Positions 4,137 through 25,057 of a stretch of DNA of 25,062 nt are shown one piece after another. Position 1 is the stretch's first letter; each line of letters begins with the position of its first letter. The position numbers were made by a program, and so were the translations under genes. Source of the DNA: an uncultured archaeon (GTDB taxonomy: Archaea > Iainarchaeota > Iainarchaeia > Iainarchaeales > CSSED10-239); contig CAYXWT010000007.1 in the NCBI GenBank assembly GCA_964468895.1, positions 1-25,062 of the forward strand. The letters run 5' to 3'. The notes under the pieces are model-generated. The model ran no database searches, had not been told where the DNA came from, and saw only the letters and a list, made by a program, of their open reading frames with translations.

Positions 4137-4649
4137 ATGAATTATAGTACTAAAAAATCTTTAGCAGTATTAGACACTTCATTTTATATTCATTTAGTTA
4201 AAATTGATTTAATAGATATTTTTTTAAATTTCTATAAAATTATTGTTTGTTCAAAAGTTAAAGAAGAAATTACTTATTTTATATATAGAGATTTGTATCT
4301 TCCAAAGGATATAGAATTATTTTTAAAATTTGAAAAATCAGATATTATAAGAATTGAAAATCCAACTAAAATTTCTAAAAGTTTAATTAGCGAAATTTCT
4401 AATGATTCTGGAGAGATGTATGCTATAGCTTTAGCTCAAGAAAAAAATAGCATTGTTTTTATAGATAATGGAAGACCATATAAGTATTGTTTAAAAAATA
4501 AAATATTGTGTTCTAATATTGTTGAATTTTTATTATATTTATATACAAATAGAATTATTACTAAAAGAGAAATTTTAAATAAAATTAAAATAATAGAAAA
4601 TACCTTGCCAAAAGAATATTTATTAGAAATATATTCTAAAATGGAGTAG
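4137..4649 (+). CDS. PIN-like nucleic-acid-binding protein, DUF3368-type (putative toxin)
   Basis: N-terminal AVLDTSFYIHLVKIDLIDIF has the acidic residue at the strand end typical of PIN domains. The central SGEMYAIALAQEKNSIVFIDNGRPYKYC matches the GE..aI.LA.e....l.DD..aR pattern of DUF3368. It is adjacent to a UPF0175-like gene. Confidence 0.6.
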   Translation: MNYSTKKSLAVLDTSFYIHLVKIDLIDIFLNFYKIIVCSKVKEEITYFIYRDLYLPKDIELFLKFEKSDIIRIENPTKISKSLISEISNDSGEMYAIALAQEKNSIVFIDNGRPYKYCLKNKILCSNIVEFLLYLYTNRIITKREILNKIKIIENTLPKEYLLEIYSKME

Positions 4650-4655
4650 AATTTT

Positions 4656-5021
4656 ATGTCTTCAAAAAAATCTGAAATTATGAAAGTTAAAACTTTAAGA
4701 TTAAAAGATTCAGTTTCATCACTTATAACTATCATTGCTAAAGAAAAGAACTTAAGTGACTCTGAATATATTAGATCTTTAGTAGAAAAGGATATTTTTA
4801 AGTTTAAAATTAATAAAGCAATTAATGCTTATAAAAAAAGAGAAATTAACATATCTAAAGGTGCTGAAATTATAGGTGTTTCTTATAGAGAATTCTTAGA
4901 TATACTTGAAGAAAGAGCAGTTCCCTTAAATATGGATAATTTTCCTATAGACTATGGATTAGCATCTATTGAAAAATCATTAAGCCCAACAGTGAAAAAT
5001 AAAATTAAAAAAAATAAGTAA
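4656..5021 (+). CDS. UPF0175-like small HTH protein (putative antitoxin)
   Basis: AINAYKKREINISKGAEIIGVSYREFLDILEERAVPLNMD matches the UPF0175 core (a..lY..g.lSlg.AAelaG.s..eF...L...gip). It starts 6 nt after the PIN-like gene. Confidence 0.55.
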   Translation: MSSKKSEIMKVKTLRLKDSVSSLITIIAKEKNLSDSEYIRSLVEKDIFKFKINKAINAYKKREINISKGAEIIGVSYREFLDILEERAVPLNMDNFPIDYGLASIEKSLSPTVKNKIKKNK

Positions 5022-8902: not shown

Positions 8903-8938
8903 AATTAATTTATTTTATTTATAAAACAAATGTTCTTT

Positions 8939-9011
8939 GCCTTTGTAGCTCAGTTGGTAGAGCATTTGCTTCGTAAGCAAAAGGTCGTGGGTTCAAAGCC
9001 CATCAAAGGCT
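8939..9011 (+). tRNA. tRNA-Thr (anticodon CGU)
   Basis: GCCTTTG-TA-GCTC-AGTTGGTA-GAGC-A-TTTGC-TTCGTAA-GCAAA-AGGTC-GTGGG-TTCAAAG-CCCAT-CAAAGGC-T gives a full hand-folded cloverleaf. No CCA is encoded. Confidence 0.9.
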
Positions 9012-9039
9012 TTGTGATTTCCTGAGCTTTCTATATTAA

Positions 9040-9069
9040 AAAGCAACTTGTTTATAAACTTGTTGCTTT
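9040..9069. promoter_or_regulatory. 30-bp near-perfect palindrome centred on a TATA-like box; candidate operator/promoter of the wHTH-NTase pair
   Basis: aaagcaacTTgtttataaacTTgttgcttt matches its own reverse complement at 26 of 30 positions. The core gtttataaac is a perfect palindrome. aacttgtt also occurs as a direct repeat on both sides of 'tata'. The centre lies about 27 nt upstream of the ATG at 9082, the spacing expected for an archaeal TATA box and a leaderless mRNA. Confidence 0.5.
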
Positions 9070-9081
9070 AAAATATAATTT

Positions 9082-9963
9082 ATGAAACTAACAAAAACTC
9101 AACTATATGTTTTTTTAGAAATTATAAAACAGAAAAATAAAGTTTCTTTGATATGTAAAGATCTTAATAAAAGTAGGTTTCAAATAAATAAAGTTATAAG
9201 GCAATTAATTGAAAAGAGATTTATTATAAAAGAAAAATATTTGTTAAATATATCTAATTATCCTTTTTCTTTAGAACTTAAGTTTTTATTAACTAAATTT
9301 CCTAAATTAATAACTGTTTTATCTGATAATGGTCTTATTTTATTAATTTCTTTTTTAAAAGAATCTACGGTTAAAGAAATTTCTGTAGATACTAAGATTA
9401 AAGAAATTACAATTTATAAATTTATAAATAAAGCAAATAATTTCTCAATTTTAATTAAAAGAAAAAATAAATATTTATTTAATGAAAAATTATGGGGTGA
9501 TTTAAAATATTTTTTATTAAATTATAAATCTTTTAATTATAATTTTGATAGTAAGGTACCTATTGGCTCAAAAATATATTATAAAAATAAAGATGAAATT
9601 GTATTTTCTTATGAAAAAGATTTAGATTGGGCTTCTATAACAGCATTTACTGCTTTTCAAAAATATAATATTCTTTTGTTTAGTAATATTGGTTATTATT
9701 ATTTACCTAAAAAAAGATTAACTAAAAAGGAGATTTTATTTCATACTGTTAAAATTGTTGAAAAAACAATGGATTTTAGGGAAATTTTGTATCTAGCACT
9801 ATTTTATTATAAATATAAAATTGAGTTTAAAAATATAAATTTAGAACTAAAATCAAATATATTAAATAATCTAGATCAAATTTATCTTGGAGAAAAAATA
9901 AAAGGATATCCTCCATTAAATGAAATTCAAGAAAAAGCAGAATTGTATGATATTAAATTGTGA
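9082..9963 (+). CDS. Double winged-helix (MarR/TrmB-like) DNA-binding protein with uncharacterised C-terminal domain; possible AbiEi-like antitoxin/regulator
   Basis: wHTH 1 is at about aa 5-55 (LYVFLEIIKQKNKVSLICKDLNKSRFQINKVIRQLIEKRFIIKEK). wHTH 2 is at about aa 85-135 (LISFLKESTVKEISVDTKIKEITIYKFINKANNFSILIKRKNKY). A ~150-aa C-terminal domain follows. It stops 7 nt upstream of the NTase gene. Confidence 0.45.
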   Translation: MKLTKTQLYVFLEIIKQKNKVSLICKDLNKSRFQINKVIRQLIEKRFIIKEKYLLNISNYPFSLELKFLLTKFPKLITVLSDNGLILLISFLKESTVKEISVDTKIKEITIYKFINKANNFSILIKRKNKYLFNEKLWGDLKYFLLNYKSFNYNFDSKVPIGSKIYYKNKDEIVFSYEKDLDWASITAFTAFQKYNILLFSNIGYYYLPKKRLTKKEILFHTVKIVEKTMDFREILYLALFYYKYKIEFKNINLELKSNILNNLDQIYLGEKIKGYPPLNEIQEKAELYDIKL

Positions 9964-9970
9964 TTGATTT

Positions 9971-10627
9971 ATGACTAGATACATTGATAGTTTTGACCAA
10001 ATATTTGAGGTTTTTGAAAAGTTAGATAAAAAATTAAACAGAAAGACGAATATTTATCTTATTGGAGGTGCTGTCTTATTATATAATAACCTTAAAGTAG
10101 GCACAAAAGACATTGATATTGTTGTTTTAAAAAAAGATGATTTTGATTTATTTAATAGTATTTTGTTGAAATCAGAATTTATAATAGAAAAGCCAACAAA
10201 AGATTATTCTCATATGAAATTAGATAAAATATTAGTTAAAGAAAATTATAGAATTGATATTTTTAATAAAATTGTTTGTGGAAAATTATCTTTAAGTGAA
10301 AGTATGATTAAAAGAGCTAAACTTATAAAAAATTATAAACATATTGATTTGTTTGCTTGTTCTAATGAAGATGTATTTGTATTTAAAAGTATTACTGAAA
10401 GGGATGGAGATGTTGATGATTGTCAATCTATATCTCTTTCTAGTATTAATTGGAATATTGTATTTGATGAAATAAAATATCAAATTAAAGAAAACGGTTC
10501 TGATGTTTGGATTACTTGGTTTGAAGAAAGATTAAATTTACTTGAAGATAGAGGAATTGTAATTCCTATAATTAAAGATATAAGAACTATGAGTAAGGTG
10601 TATTTTGATAAGTTAGAAAAAGATTAG
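9971..10627 (+). CDS. Minimal nucleotidyltransferase-fold protein (AbiEii / MNT / DUF6036-like)
   Basis: IYLIGGAVLLYNNLKVGTKDIDIVV gives the G[GS] and DxD pattern of pol-beta-fold NTases. A third acidic strand is YRIDIF. The downstream CSNEDVFVFKSITERDGDVDDCQSI resembles the ..eD.i..Kl.agR.kD..D block seen in HTH-associated archaeal NTases. Confidence 0.5.
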   Translation: MTRYIDSFDQIFEVFEKLDKKLNRKTNIYLIGGAVLLYNNLKVGTKDIDIVVLKKDDFDLFNSILLKSEFIIEKPTKDYSHMKLDKILVKENYRIDIFNKIVCGKLSLSESMIKRAKLIKNYKHIDLFACSNEDVFVFKSITERDGDVDDCQSISLSSINWNIVFDEIKYQIKENGSDVWITWFEERLNLLEDRGIVIPIIKDIRTMSKVYFDKLEKD

Positions 10628-10704
10628 AATTGGTATAATTGTAGTTTTATTAAAAATATATATTTAATGAAATTGCATTTACTTATTAAATTTAAAAAAA
10701 TAAG

Positions 10705-10788
10705 AATAAATATAGTTTAAATAATATTGTTTCTTCTAATTATATACTAATTTAAAAAAACAAAAATATTTTTGGAAAAAATAAGGTT
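10705..10788 (+). repeat. Non-coding duplicate of the 3' end of the GNAT gene (copy of 12102-12184)
   Basis: A 42-nt perfect match (10705-10746 = 12102-12143) is followed by 42 nt with 3 mismatches and a 1-nt A-run indel. Weaker similarity may extend back to about 10629-10685. Confidence 0.9.
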
Positions 10789-10806
10789 CTAAAACAAATA
10801 TTCTTT

Positions 10807-10879
10807 GCTTTTGTAGTTAAATTGAAAAAATATTTGATTAGCAAGCAAAAGGTAGTGGGTTCAAATTCCATCAAAAGCT
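10807..10879 (+). pseudogene. Decayed full-length copy of tRNA-Thr (tRNA-like remnant; anticodon position now AGC)
   Basis: It has the same length (73 nt) as the 8939-9011 tRNA and aligns without indels. By hand alignment 57 of 73 positions are identical, and 14 of the 16 changes are G/C->A/T. The acceptor stem is still fully paired, with a compensatory C3-G70 -> T3-A70 change. The T arm is still paired. The D and anticodon stems are disrupted. The 16-nt leader is also copied (15/16 identical). Confidence 0.75.
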
Positions 10880-10885
10880 TTTAGT

Positions 10886-11646
10886 GTGTATGATATGTTA
10901 TTTAAATTTTTTAAAAAAAGACCAAAGGTATTATTAGGTAAAATTAATTTAAAACCAAATGAAAGAGTTAGAACAAAAAGTTCTGTTGATAGTAAATTAG
11001 TTGTAACTAAGGTTAATGGTAGAACTCAGTATTATTCAAAATATTTTGGTTCTAAAGGTTCTATAAAAGATAGGCTTGTTTTACATTTAAGTGTAGTTGC
11101 AAAAAATTTAATTAACAGGATAACAAATAAAGAAATTAATTTTGAAAATAGTTTTGTTAAAATTAATTTATGTCCATTTTACGTGTCAGAAGGTTCAAAC
11201 CATGATCATGTTTATAGTTTAAATATGTATTCTAAAAAAGATAAGACTTCACAAAAATATTTTGTAAAAACGTCTAAAGAAAATATGTTTCCTAGTTCTA
11301 ATGAATTTGTTGCGAATAAAATCTTTGAAAAGTTTGGTATTAATACAATTAAACCACACATTGCATATTTTAATCCTGAATCAAAAGGTAATTTTATAAT
11401 ATATGATTTTACAAATTTAAGTTCTTTATCTTTGTCAAGATCTCATGGTGAAATTACATCCTCAGAATATATATCGGTACTGAAAAAAGCAGAAAAATTA
11501 TATGATTATTGTTAGGATATTTTGACTTTAAAGGTATTGGAGATTTTTTAAATCCTGCTAATATTTTTGTAAAAAAAACTGCTGATAATAAAATTAAGAT
11601 ATATTTTACAGATTTATTGATTGGAGTCAAAATCCATACTTATTAA
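10886..11646 (+). pseudogene. Kinase-like (protein-kinase/APH/RIO-type fold) gene interrupted by a -1 frameshift and C-terminally short
   Basis: The ORF 10886..11515 (GTG start; first ATG at 10895) has N-lobe-like features: KYFVKTSKEN (beta3 Lys), NEFVANKIFEKFGI (alphaC) and FIIYDF (hinge). It then hits TAG at 11513. The -1 frame, open from 11506 to a TAA at 11644-11646, continues with GYFDFKGIGDFLNPANIFVKK...KIYFTDLLIG. That resembles a catalytic-loop (GDxxPxNI) and DFG-like pair. Confidence 0.4.
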
Positions 11647-11681
11647 TATCTTTTAAAAAAATAAATAAATTTAAGATTTTT

Positions 11682-12206
11682 ATGAAAGTTAAATTAAAAG
11701 ATAAAGTTTTTAATTATAGATTTGCAAAAAAAGAAGATATTAATAGATGTTTATATCTTGAAAAGATTATTGCAAATGAATCTGATTCAAATTTACATCT
11801 TAGTTATAATAAAAAAGATCTTATACATAAGCTTGTTAATAAAAATAAGATATTATTATTATTTTATAAAAATAGATTAATAGCTTATTCTAATGTAGAA
11901 TTATCTAATAAAGATAGATTAAATTGGATAGATGAATTTGATATAAAGAAAAAATTTTTTTGTTTTGTAGGTTATTTAGGTGGTACAAGAGTTAGTTCTA
12001 ACTTTAGAGGTTATGGTATTCAAAGATTCTTTATTAGAAAAAGAGAAGAATATCTTAAAAAAATTGGATGTAAGTTATCGCTTATTACAGTTCATCCAAA
12101 AAATAAATATAGTTTAAATAATATTGTTTCTTCTAATTATATATTAATTAAAAAAAATAAAAATATTTTTGGAAAAATAAGGTTATTTTATAAGAAAAAA
12201 ATTTAA
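11682..12206 (+). CDS. GNAT-family N-acetyltransferase
   Basis: The acetyl-CoA motif A-like block is GGTRVSSNFRGYGIQRFFIRKREEYLKKIGCKLSLITVHPKNKYSLNNI. Length is 174 aa. Confidence 0.7.
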   Translation: MKVKLKDKVFNYRFAKKEDINRCLYLEKIIANESDSNLHLSYNKKDLIHKLVNKNKILLLFYKNRLIAYSNVELSNKDRLNWIDEFDIKKKFFCFVGYLGGTRVSSNFRGYGIQRFFIRKREEYLKKIGCKLSLITVHPKNKYSLNNIVSSNYILIKKNKNIFGKIRLFYKKKI

Positions 12207-12225
12207 ATTAAAAATGTGGTAAATT

Positions 12226-23548: not shown

Positions 23549-25057
23549 TTGTTTTTAAAATTAAATGGTGATAATTTGTTTAAGATATTTAGAAAAAATA
23601 AAAAAAATGTTGTTGACAATCAATCAAAAATACCTACACCTTCAATTAAAGTTAAGAGGGTAATAAATCCTATATTTAAAAAAAAGGCCAAAGGTACAAA
23701 AAGTAATCCTACTTTAAGAGAAGCAAAAAATAAATTGAAAAAGTATCATTCTGAAGAGATACATGGTTTTTTGAAAAACCTTGGTACTAAAGAAAATCCT
23801 GCAAGAAGTCTTCTAGCTAAAGGTATAGATGCAAGGCAGTTAAAAAAAAGAGGTTTTAATGTTGTACTTTTAAAAAATTTAGGTTTTGGAATTGGTGAAT
23901 TACATATACTAGGTTTTAATGCTTTGGATTTAATGAGAACAGGTGTTACTTCTCTTGAATTTAAAAAAATTGGTATTAATGCTGTAAAACTTTACAAAGA
24001 AAATATTAGTGCTAGTTTGTTAAAAAAAATTGGTTTTGGAATTGGTGAATTAAAGAATGCTGGTTTTGATGTTCGTAAGTTAAAGACTGCTGGTTTTGGT
24101 GCTGGTGAATTAAAAAAAGTTGGTTTTGGAGCTGGTGAATTAATGAAAGTTGGTTTTGGAGCTGGTGAATTAAAGAAAGCCGGTTTTGGTCTTAAAATTT
24201 TAACAGAAATTGGTTTTGGTCCTGATAAATTAAAGAAGGCTGGTTTTGGTGTTGGTGAATTAAAAAAAGGTGGTTTTAAAGCTCGTCATTTACGTAATTT
24301 TGGTTTTGGTGCTGTTGAATTAAAGAAAGCTGGTTTTACTGCTGTTGAGTTAAAGAAAGCTGGTTTTAGTTTTAAAATATTGTCAGAAGAACTACAGTTT
24401 TCTACTGTTGAATTAAAAAGTGCAGGTTTTGGTGTTAGGGAATTCCATAATGCTGGTTTTAATGGTGTTAGTTTAAAAAAAATGGGTTTTAGTGTTGGTG
24501 AAGTGTTGAAAATTTATAACTTAAAAACATTAAAAAAAATTGGTTTTACTGCTGTTGAATTTAAGAATGCTGGTTTTGGTCCTAGAATTTTAAAAGAATC
24601 TGGTTTTGGTAATGTTGCAATAAAATCTGCTGGTTTTAAACTTATAGAATTGAAAAAGGATGGTTTTACTGCTAGTGAATTATCAGGTATAGGGTTTACT
24701 GTTAAGGAATTAAAGGAAGTAGGGTTTACTGTTAAAGAATTAATAAAAGAACGTTTTACAATTAAGGAATTGATACAAGGAGATTGTTCTGCTAAAGAAT
24801 TAAGAGGATCTCTTAGGAATATTAATTTTAAAAGAGCTGGTTTTAATATTATTAAATTAAAAAATATAGGTTTTACTTGTCTTGAGTTAAGAAATAGGGG
24901 TTTTAATATTGTAGATTTAAAAAATGCTGGCTTTGGAATCGTGGATATAGTTTCTACAAACAGGTTTACAATTTCTGAACTATTACAAACAGGTTATTCT
25001 CAAAAAGAAGTTAATTTAGCATTTGGAAAACTAAAATCTAAAGGTACTAAAAAATAA
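23549..25057 (+). CDS. Basic tandem-repeat protein: about 40 consecutive decapeptide units (consensus GFxxxELKKA), pentapeptide-repeat-like
   Basis: A single 502-codon ORF with no in-frame ATG near the 5' end. The track start is the TTG at 23549. The TTG at 23576 is preceded by GGTGA (23567-23571) and a 4-nt spacer, exactly as for the 19291 gene, and is the more likely start. The lysine-rich N-terminal ~85 aa are followed by the repeat array. Confidence 0.8.
   Translation: MFLKLNGDNLFKIFRKNKKNVVDNQSKIPTPSIKVKRVINPIFKKKAKGTKSNPTLREAKNKLKKYHSEEIHGFLKNLGTKENPARSLLAKGIDARQLKKRGFNVVLLKNLGFGIGELHILGFNALDLMRTGVTSLEFKKIGINAVKLYKENISASLLKKIGFGIGELKNAGFDVRKLKTAGFGAGELKKVGFGAGELMKVGFGAGELKKAGFGLKILTEIGFGPDKLKKAGFGVGELKKGGFKARHLRNFGFGAVELKKAGFTAVELKKAGFSFKILSEELQFSTVELKSAGFGVREFHNAGFNGVSLKKMGFSVGEVLKIYNLKTLKKIGFTAVEFKNAGFGPRILKESGFGNVAIKSAGFKLIELKKDGFTASELSGIGFTVKELKEVGFTVKELIKERFTIKELIQGDCSAKELRGSLRNINFKRAGFNIIKLKNIGFTCLELRNRGFNIVDLKNAGFGIVDIVSTNRFTISELLQTGYSQKEVNLAFGKLKSKGTKK
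23810..25010 (+). repeat. 30-nt coding tandem repeat array (about 40 units)
   Basis: Example units are gttggttttggagctggtgaattaatgaaa (24119-24148) and gttggttttggagctggtgaattaaagaaa (24149-24178), which differ at 2 of 30 positions. A second near-identical pair is at about 24700-24760. Outer units are more diverged. The register holds except for a few +/-1 codon slips. Confidence 0.9.

Follow-up and report, generated by a model that had tools for sequence, protein, structure and literature searches.

A 178-nt compound insertion in a DPANN archaeon, probably copied from a nearby GNAT gene and a tRNA-Thr gene

The window analysed here, i.e., the whole stretch of 25,062 nt, comes from a tiny, AT-rich DPANN archaeon (Iainarchaeota-like) and carries a compound block, G'T', in the spacer between a nucleotidyltransferase (NTase) gene and a kinase-like gene (Table 1). 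With a probability of roughly two in three, this block arose as a single insertion of two patches copied from local sequences, most likely by template switching, after which T' decayed and G' underwent conversion. Patch 1 comprises 85 nt from within the GNAT gene, 1.4 kb downstream, and patch 2 comprises 95 nt from 1.9 kb upstream, namely tRNA-Thr(CGU) flanked by about 20 nt on its 5' side and 2 nt on its 3' side; a TTAT microhomology marks the head-to-tail joint between the two, and the block was set into the NTase/kinase-like spacer. The locus is an ordinary repair scar and represents no mobile element, new tRNA or new biological system; its practical value is that of a caution and a worked example.

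Table 1. Features of the locus, with positions in the window.
Feature	Position	Strand	Content	Evidence
Donor T	8919..9013	+	About 20 nt upstream, live tRNA-Thr(CGU) at 8939-9011 and 2 nt downstream	ARAGORN; Rfam, 71.7 bits
wHTH protein	9082-9963	+		Weak TrmB, Sta1 and Lrs14 wHTH matches
DUF6036 nucleotidyltransferase (NTase)	9971-10627	+		Pfam DUF6036, E = 1e-6
Recipient spacer, left part	10628..10703	+		Homologous to L007 and L095 spacers; 82% identity to L095
Compound insertion G'+T', 178 nt	10704..10881	+	In the NTase-to-kinase-like spacer	Excision compared with L007 and L095
G', non-coding copy of GNAT codons ~141-168	10705..10790	+	Frame broken by TAA in the window	
G/T joint	10787..10790	+	TTCT in the window, TTAT in L095	Sequence comparison
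T', tRNA-Thr pseudogene, miscalled tRNA-Ala(AGC)	10807..10879	+		Rfam, ARAGORN, folding, L095 ortholog
Recipient spacer, right part	10882..10885	+	Into kinase-like gene	L007 homology resumes (TAGT...)
Kinase-like pseudogene (label of the initial annotation)	10886..11646	+		Comparison with intact 269-aa L095 ortholog P0216
Donor G	12102..12186	+	Internal 3' segment of intact GNAT gene (11682-12206)	Repeat search; Pfam Acetyltransf_1, weak

Both repeat pairs described in the initial annotation were recovered. A repeat search of the window aligned T (8919-9013) with T' (10787-10881) without gaps at 77 of 95 positions, and the earlier values for the tRNA part (57/73) and the 16-nt leader (15/16) were reproduced. 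G (12102-12186) and G' (10705-10790) differ by three substitutions and one indel; local alignment of 12099-12186 with 10702-10790 likewise returns the 42-nt perfect core, with three to four substitutions and the single indel, located in an A run. The similarity of T and T' exceeds that of a shuffled AT-rich background, a 23-nt probe from the 3' end of T (up to three mismatches) matching only T and T' and giving no match in shuffles. The statement that G' and T' are fused within 2 nt was wrong, the two homologies overlapping by 4 nt. A chimeric assembly, which had been raised as a concern, is excluded because four independent assemblies from different samples (L001-L004) span both junctions and read through 10704-10881 with zero differences; in a fifth locus (L005), the left junction only is covered.

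The spacer of a related lineage, L007, is best aligned when exactly 10704-10881 is cut out, which brings back 17 consecutive identical nucleotides (TTTAAAAAAATAA followed by TAGT); the sequence recreated across the excision point, TTTAAAAAAATAATAGT, is the same 17-nt run as in L007. In a second relative, L095, removal of the equivalent 177 nt likewise restores the spacer, and nothing left in the L007 spacer resembles T, T' or G' more than shuffled sequences do. Since exact excision restores a spacer of the L007 type, G'T' is one compound insertion and not a residue of deletions. The proposal that the scar was left over after a loss of material was thus not borne out: exactly 178 nt were inserted in an intact spacer, which lost no base at insertion. 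The window and L095 are sisters, with 93-95% nucleotide identity in the wHTH, NTase and cyclophilin genes, L007 being the outgroup (82-90%), and the insert occupies the same three junctions in both sisters. A single insertion took place, in the ancestor that the window population shares with L095, after the L007 lineage had split off; that it was a gain, as opposed to a loss in L007, follows from parsimony with one outgroup.

Tandem duplications are classically recognised by a head-to-tail joint between both ends of one contiguous segment, and such a joint links G (end 12186) to T (start 8919) at 10787-10790. It can be envisaged that the 3.27-kb segment from T to G was duplicated in tandem, creating the G/T joint, and that two complementary deletions then removed the kinase-like gene and the 5' part of the GNAT gene from copy 1 and the wHTH-NTase pair from copy 2. 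The order T...G'T'...G fits this scheme, and the direct joining of the right end of the segment (G) to its left end (T) is what the locus shares with a tandem-duplication or attP-like circular junction. In contrast to such a junction, the interior occurs only once, none of its material being duplicated elsewhere in the window according to the repeat search, and the block is an isolated insert inside the segment, with the spacer intact on both sides and continuous with that of L007 across the excision point. Moreover, two independent deletions would need the same end nucleotide. The two-deletion version is refuted by the precise-insertion result; while the G/T junction could have existed beforehand in a short-lived duplication or circle and been copied from there into the spacer, an origin by tandem duplication is unlikely. 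G stops inside the open reading frame, 20 nt short of the GNAT stop codon, and the G'/T' joint is not a natural intergenic junction.

For a two-patch insertion copied from local sequences, microhomology-mediated template switching in replication or break repair (MMBIR/FoSTeS or synthesis-dependent MMEJ) is the likeliest mechanism, to judge solely by its end product. The nascent strand would have left the spacer, copied G, jumped to T at TTAT and returned. A 4-nt microhomology is present in both donors at the joint (...GGTTAT in G, TTAT AAAAC... in T), and those at the spacer-to-G and T-to-spacer junctions measure about 2 and 1 nt, these lengths being at chance level in DNA of 20% GC. The donors, 1.4 and 1.9 kb distant, have the same orientation as the insert, and the recipient is otherwise intact. 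To our knowledge, no templated insertion of the MMBIR type has been documented in DPANN archaea. MMBIR is established as a source of templated insertions through microhomology template switching (PMC8421209), and the insertions of MMBIR/FoSTeS and synthesis-dependent MMEJ have been described for the most part in eukaryotes (PMC8421209; PMC11724301). Archaea, too, have been observed to use microhomology-mediated end joining, reports of a-EJ being limited to Haloferax and Sulfolobus (PMC8708640). The locus resembles MMBIR/FoSTeS and MMEJ insertions in its short patches from nearby, their direct orientation, their occurrence as several per event and the preservation of the recipient; its joints show microhomology as well, but of lengths too short for significance at this base composition. 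It differs in that the insertion is natural and fixed, in a DPANN archaeon that has not been cultivated, with patches of 85 and 95 nt and donors on either side. Because both an outgroup and a sister lineage are at hand, the locus provides a dated natural two-patch templated insertion in an archaeon.

Reverse transcriptases (RTs) switch templates as well, and a chimeric cDNA can be considered: an RT would have copied the pre-tRNA-Thr and jumped to the GNAT mRNA, and the product would have been captured at a break in the spacer, giving a retro-insertion in a DPANN archaeon. Such a cDNA is conceivable because the tRNA patch could span an entire pre-tRNA transcription unit, from a short leader through the tRNA to UU, and patch 2, with its short leader, whole tRNA and two T, has roughly the possible extent of a primary tRNA transcript. 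A preprint reports a bacterial group II intron-like RT active in MMEJ (bioRxiv 10.1101/2022.03.14.484287). However, no RT gene is present among the window ORFs, a CCA or poly-A signature is absent from the insert, and the G patch ends within the ORF, at no known RNA end. As DNA-level switching covers all of these features without extra assumptions, an RNA template is very unlikely.

Regarding T', the initial annotation saw a decayed copy of the tRNA. The decay is evident, but T' still scores as a tRNA, with 51.7 bits against RF00005 in Rfam (gathering score 29) and a call of tRNA-Ala(AGC) by ARAGORN. While the MFE structure of the live tRNA-Thr is a cloverleaf (-26.4 kcal/mol, z = -3.35), its 73 nt being unchanged in L095 and 97% identical in L007, that of T' is non-cloverleaf (-12.4 kcal/mol, z = -1.37), and 18 of 200 shuffles fold as well. 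Read from the sequence, G19 has become A, C61 has become U and G15:C48 has become A:A, with mismatches at 13:22 and 31:39. The L095 ortholog of T' has other substitutions and an anticodon triplet TGT, and reaches 24.6 bits, below the Rfam threshold. Over the 95 nt, 18 substitutions are counted in the window T' and 20 in that of L095, with 15 of 38 G/C sites lost in each. Changed sites common to both lineages number six, against 5.9 expected by chance (P = 0.61), and only two of them changed to the same base. A/T sites of T' changed by 5-9% per lineage, consistent with the flanking spacer (82% between lineages). Four-fold sites of this genome have a GC of 5%, and neutral sites at this level explain the rapid loss of G/C from T'. 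The decay having struck different positions in the window and L095, T' is a neutrally decaying tRNA-Thr pseudogene. In terms of sequence evolution, T' thus behaves as a pseudogene that was functionless from its insertion onwards and decayed independently in two lineages under extreme AT-biased mutation.

A functional role of T', either as an anticodon-shifted tRNA (AGC) or as a tRNA-like processing signal before the kinase-like gene, could be proposed on the strength of the Rfam score and the ARAGORN call. In addition, the acceptor and T stems still pair, two compensatory double changes (3:70 and 11:24) can be read from the sequence, and T' ends 6 nt upstream of the kinase-like ORF. Yet with 39% of G/C sites mutated, chance alone should produce about two double hits, and in the window the downstream kinase-like gene is a pseudogene as well. 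The alanine identity pair of tRNA is G3:U70, and A34 is atypical in archaeal tRNAs; T' carries U3:A70 and A34. Together with the non-cloverleaf fold, the lost positions and pairs and the divergent, low-scoring sister copy, this makes a functional T' improbable in the extreme. The tRNA-Ala(AGC) call is an artefact, given the fold of T', its lost conserved positions and the absence of conservation in the sister; taken at face value, the call of these standard tools would add a spurious, odd tRNA to the DPANN gene set.

The two halves of the block have diverged unequally from their donors. Of the 15 G/C losses in the window T', 14 lie within the tRNA body, while all eight G/C positions of G are retained in G', both counts agreeing with those from which two events of different age had been deduced. 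According to that reading, T' stems from an old duplication or insertion, and G' was set against it later by a second insertion; the losses (15/38 versus 0/8) give a naive P of about 0.02 for equal rates. Against this, both halves have identical outer and inner junctions in the two sisters, and both are missing from L007. As there is no excess of decay common to both lineages, T' was essentially intact at the split between the window and L095, and not older than G'. A/T sites have diverged equally in the two halves (3/57 in T', 2/77 in G').

At the T' loss rate of 39% per lineage, retention of 8/8 G/C sites in G' also has a P of about 0.02, and the single-insertion reading consequently needs either gene conversion or chance for G'. 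The informative characters of the alignment A4 are TA[A/G]TT, a T/G/C site and AAAAATATT versus AAAAAACATT; at these, each G' has the state of the G of its own genome. G and G' of L095 share states unlike those of the window pair at three to four clustered characters, and at no site in A4 do both G' stand together apart from both G. One of the three substitutions between G and G', at 12144, is a private change in the window G, with C in the other strains, in G of L095 and L007, and in G'. The pattern at the informative characters points to G and G' evolving in concert by gene conversion, apparently with at least one tract; the signal consists of three to four clustered characters and could reflect a single tract. 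As in concerted evolution of short intragenomic repeats, each G' carries the lineage-specific states of its own G and not those of its ortholog; unlike in that process, the tract here is only about 85 nt long and the adjoining T/T' pair is not homogenised. Because conversion would keep G' close to G, G' would look younger than T', and with conversion of G' two events are not needed; a pair of separate events is quite unlikely. At this locus, a GC-rich sequence decaying fast and neutrally under extreme AT pressure, with 39% of its G/C sites gone in each lineage, stands beside an 85-nt repeat apparently preserved by conversion, which illustrates that adjacent repeats can diverge unequally without differing in age.

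tRNA genes are classical integration targets, and T and T' could be taken for what remains of attL and attR after an integrative element had inserted at tRNA-Thr with the wHTH-NTase pair as cargo and later lost its integrase. Two genes lie between the direct repeats T and T', relatives vary in this region, and, as with the tRNA fragments of integrative elements, a direct tRNA repeat lies downstream of a live tRNA gene in a variable genomic interval. However, the repeat consists of 20 nt upstream and the whole 73-nt gene and not of the tRNA 3' part, leaving no 3' core, and T' came fused to a GNAT fragment in the 178-nt insert. No family match to an integrase or transposase was found in Pfam for window ORFs of at least 60 aa, nor an integrase or recombinase among the ORFs between T and G in Pfam, NCBIfam, PHROG and PADLOC; the absence of an integrase, noted in the initial annotation, was thereby borne out. 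The supposed cargo directly follows glyS in L007, L012 and L014 as well, i.e., in four lineages with the window, although tRNA-Thr is absent from the fetched locus of L012 and L014, and T' from L007. NTase identity in these three (83, 70 and 60%, respectively) tracks GlyRS identity (80, 64 and 60%), which argues for vertical descent. The wHTH-NTase pair consists of conserved glyS neighbours and not of accessory genes bracketed by a scar, as had been supposed. Such att remnants are highly improbable, and the G'T' block is neither an att site, nor a mobile-element border, nor a working tRNA; the earlier preference for a scar of illegitimate recombination over a fresh integrated element is supported.

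In relatives, the interval between glyS and the cyclophilin gene is a hotspot of gene turnover. The kinase-like gene in this interval has no family match in Pfam, NCBIfam, PADLOC or PHROG. Compared with its ortholog P0216 in L095, it has lost 45 nt near 11095, which leaves the frame intact, and 13 nt near 11512, which shifts it, and the region of these deletions is free of differences among L001-L004.

Both repeat pairs described in the initial annotation exist (see table). The live tRNA-Thr(CGU) gene with its leader of about 20 nt (T) and the decayed downstream copy (T') are identical at 77 of 95 positions without gaps, and the internal 3' segment of the GNAT gene (G) and its non-coding copy (G') share a perfect core of 42 nt and otherwise differ by 3-4 substitutions and a single indel. 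Used as a probe, 23 nt of the tRNA 3' end matched T and T' alone, and shuffles gave 0 matches; nor did a search upstream of GNAT for an att-like version of this end find anything beyond T and T'. Extending the G' homology further upstream with gaps, to about 10659, was not significant (880 of 2000 shuffles scored equally). Chimeric assembly had been raised as a concern. Since four assemblies from separate samples (L001-L004, 99.6-100% identical) span the block with zero differences, the junctions are not assembly artefacts; in L005, a fifth assembly, coverage is limited to the left junction.

Coordinates of the features discussed (window positions unless another locus is named)
Feature	Position	Detail
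Schlafen AlbA_2 / HATPase_c_4 / wHTH protein	1184-2500	upstream of the UPF0175 pair
170-aa ORF adjoining UPF0175 protein	4137-5021	
Live tRNA-Thr 5' flank	8903-8938; L095 1-222; L007 8640-8663	wholly different among the three closest lineages
T	8919-9013	
Inverted repeat	9038-9070	8-bp arms AAAGCAAC...GTTGCTTT around TTTATAAA box, ~30 nt upstream of wHTH start codon
G'	10702-10790	
Interval removed in best L007 alignment	10704-10881	178 nt
T'	10787-10881	
Kinase-like gene	10886-11646	
Deletion in kinase-like gene	near 11095	45 nt, in frame
Deletion in kinase-like gene	near 11512	13 nt, frameshifting
GNAT strain-level variants	11707-11721; 12144-12219	
G	12099-12186	
Decayed genes of L007	L007 11299-12396; 13181-13391	GNAT, Na/Ca exchanger and kinase-like gene
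ORF of 30-nt (10-aa) repeats	23549-25057	reaches window end

The scar is no remnant: the G'T' block between the NTase (DUF6036) and kinase-like genes is a single precise insertion. When all possible intervals were removed and the spacer was aligned to that of the relative L007, an excision scan that replaced a misleading MAFFT global alignment of the spacers, the best alignment was obtained after removal of 178 nt, which restores a 17-nt stretch shared exactly with L007, TTTAAAAAAATAA|TAGT. In the sister lineage L095, removing 177 nt likewise restores the L007-type spacer, and the L007 spacer itself showed no trace of T, T' or G' beyond the shuffled background. L095 comes from JGI sample 3300039186, the same sample as the window-type contig L004. 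At the nucleotide level, wHTH, NTase and cyclophilin are 93-95% identical between the window and L095, and L007 is 82-90% identical to both, so L007 is the outgroup. As the same insert is found in the window and in L095, it arose once, before their split; most parsimoniously, on this sequence comparison, it would postdate the split from L007. A tandem duplication trimmed by two independent deletions could also leave a G'T' block, but both deletions would have to end at one same base, which makes this route very unlikely. The suggestion of illegitimate recombination rather than a fresh integrated element is upheld for this precise insertion, and the interval is recombination-prone.

Comparing the two lineages gives a reading of the ancestral joints. 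At the spacer-to-G joint, the recipient ends in ...AAAAAAATAA and G starts with AAATAAATATAG..., with about 2 nt shared; at the G-to-T joint, G ends in ...AAGGTTAT and T starts with TTATAAAAC..., with TTAT (4 nt) shared; at the T-to-spacer joint, T ends in ...GGCTTT and the spacer starts with TAGTG..., with about 1 nt shared. These microhomologies are too short for significance at this base composition. Because G' ends 20 nt short of the GNAT stop codon, the G-T joint was made by rearrangement instead of being a natural stretch between genes. Microhomology-mediated template switching in replication or break repair would place two nearby-templated patches at one site, and appears to be the simplest process giving both patches without loss of recipient sequence. 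Such switching is known to yield templated insertions (PMC8421209), and in archaea microhomology-mediated joining has been seen (PMC8708640). A transient tandem duplicate or circle may instead have supplied a pre-formed G-T joint. The G'T' insert adds an example to an established type of mutation and shows no sign of function.

When G and G' of both lineages are aligned with the G of L007, the informative characters put G and G' from one genome together (TAATT and AAAAATATT in the window; TAGTT, a shared G and AAAAAACATT in L095), and no site unites the two G'. Such a site pattern marks one gene-conversion tract or more, which accounts for the younger look of G'. Of the G/G' differences in the window, the one at 12144 arose privately in the G of this strain. 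Since each G' tracks its own G and this change is private to G, the argument for at least two events of different age is not compelling; the identical junctions in the window and L095 argue for a single event.

The genome hosting the insert is AT-rich (window GC of about 22%), and across the 22 ORFs of the whole window four-fold degenerate third positions have a GC of just 5.0%, with T well above A, which indicates an extreme AT mutational bias. Housekeeping genes are archaeal (fibrillarin, Nop5, Pus10, TFB, L15e, L35Ae and RNase HII), and the best named relatives of GlyRS are Candidatus Iainarchaeum and Diapherotrites MAGs, so the source is a DPANN archaeon.

T' scores 51.7 bits against Rfam and is called tRNA-Ala(AGC) by ARAGORN. 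Alanine identity requires a G3:U70 pair, which is absent from T'; read from the sequence, T' also lacks G19 and C61 as well as the pairs 13:22, 15:48 and 31:39. Live T folds into a cloverleaf (-26.4 kcal/mol, z = -3.35), and the minimum free energy fold of T' (-12.4 kcal/mol, z = -1.37) is not one. T' is not a working tRNA. Over 95 nt it differs from T by 18 changes in the window and 20 in L095, where it falls to 24.6 bits, under the Rfam threshold, and 15 of 38 G/C sites have been lost in each. Both copies are changed at six sites, where chance predicts 5.9 (P = 0.61), and the new base is the same at only two of these; T' was thus essentially intact at the window/L095 split and drifted separately afterwards. 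In either lineage 5-9% of A/T sites have changed, in keeping with the adjoining spacer (window and L095 82% identical). With a four-fold GC of 5%, fast G/C loss is expected in an unconstrained sequence of 48% GC, which explains the rate observed in T'. The window T' has two compensatory doubles (3:70 and 11:24), roughly the chance number when 39% of G/C sites are mutated. The decay of T' is, judging from these comparisons, independent in each lineage and neutral. Using the kinase-like gene as a rate calibration, which implied too fast a G/C loss in T', was dropped, because this gene is intact in L095 and hence was under selection until recently. The case is of value mainly because it exposes a false tRNA-Ala(AGC) call and as a clean natural case, from a DPANN archaeon, in which templated insertion, neutral loss of GC and gene conversion come together.

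Useful relatives at graded distances were obtained from exact-protein look-ups. GlyRS peptide-pattern scans for close relatives gave none among genome contigs and the window's own contig only among metagenome contigs, and relatives in an alignment-based GlyRS scan were all ≤66% identical. The conserved backbone is Pus10, tRNA-Leu, glyS, a variable interval, cyclophilin, (Na/Ca exchanger), fibrillarin and Nop, and the glyS-to-cyclophilin content differs in each lineage examined. L095 has MarC, T, wHTH, NTase, G'T', an intact kinase-like gene (269 aa), GNAT and cyclophilin; L007 has T, wHTH, NTase, a decayed kinase-like gene, a minus-strand methyltransferase and a GNAT remnant. In L012 and L014, wHTH-NTase is followed by other genes, and tRNA-Thr is absent from the fetched loci. 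MarC, T and HSP20 can be found in L009; HAD, T and an unrelated 174-aa gene in L010; and about 0.8 kb without tRNA in L016 and L017. The L010 174-aa protein upstream of cyclophilin was considered as a GNAT ortholog and rejected, having no BLASTP similarity. Identity to the window in L007, L012 and L014 is 83, 70 and 60% for NTase and 80, 64 and 60% for GlyRS. As NTase tracks GlyRS, the wHTH-NTase pair has descended vertically alongside glyS and is not cargo enclosed by the repeats, contrary to the initial annotation of a scar around accessory genes.

The 5' flank of tRNA-Thr in L095 is a MarC gene, 82% identical at the nucleotide level to that of L009, and homology to the window begins 3 nt before the tRNA. 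The L095 T' leader matches the window-type leader at 19 of 20 positions. Given this variable flank and the window-type leader of L095 T', the 5' edge of the tRNA is a recurrent recombination breakpoint, and T' keeps the ancestral leader. The inverted repeat and box upstream of wHTH look like a promoter with an operator at which the wHTH protein would act. L095 has the identical repeat and L007 retains the arms, the adjacent spacer being variable.

Relative to the intact L095 ortholog (P0216), the window kinase-like gene carries two deletions, in a region without differences among L001-L004. Whether or not the frameshift was repaired, no family was found for its product in Pfam, NCBIfam, PADLOC or PHROGs, the name being the label of the initial annotation, and homologs are few (13 hits). 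GNAT strain-level variants cluster, adjoining genes being almost invariant: one assembly has a 15-nt deletion, and at the 3' end lie several SNPs together with a 2-nt indel that alters the C-terminus; the products have 170, 174 or 175 aa. In L007, only short pieces of the Na/Ca exchanger are left, the kinase-like gene has broken up into small ORFs, and a minus-strand methyltransferase gene cuts GNAT down to its 3' third. Gene decay is lineage-specific within one interval.

Elsewhere in the window, the 170-aa ORF and the UPF0175 protein are possibly a toxin-antitoxin-like pair; the L007 counterpart of the ORF, also 170 aa and in the same position, matches DUF3368. Neither this pair nor the Schlafen AlbA_2 protein bears any relation to the G'T' insert. 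The long repeat ORF matches the Pfam Decapeptide repeat (PF25296, E = 1.6e-95).
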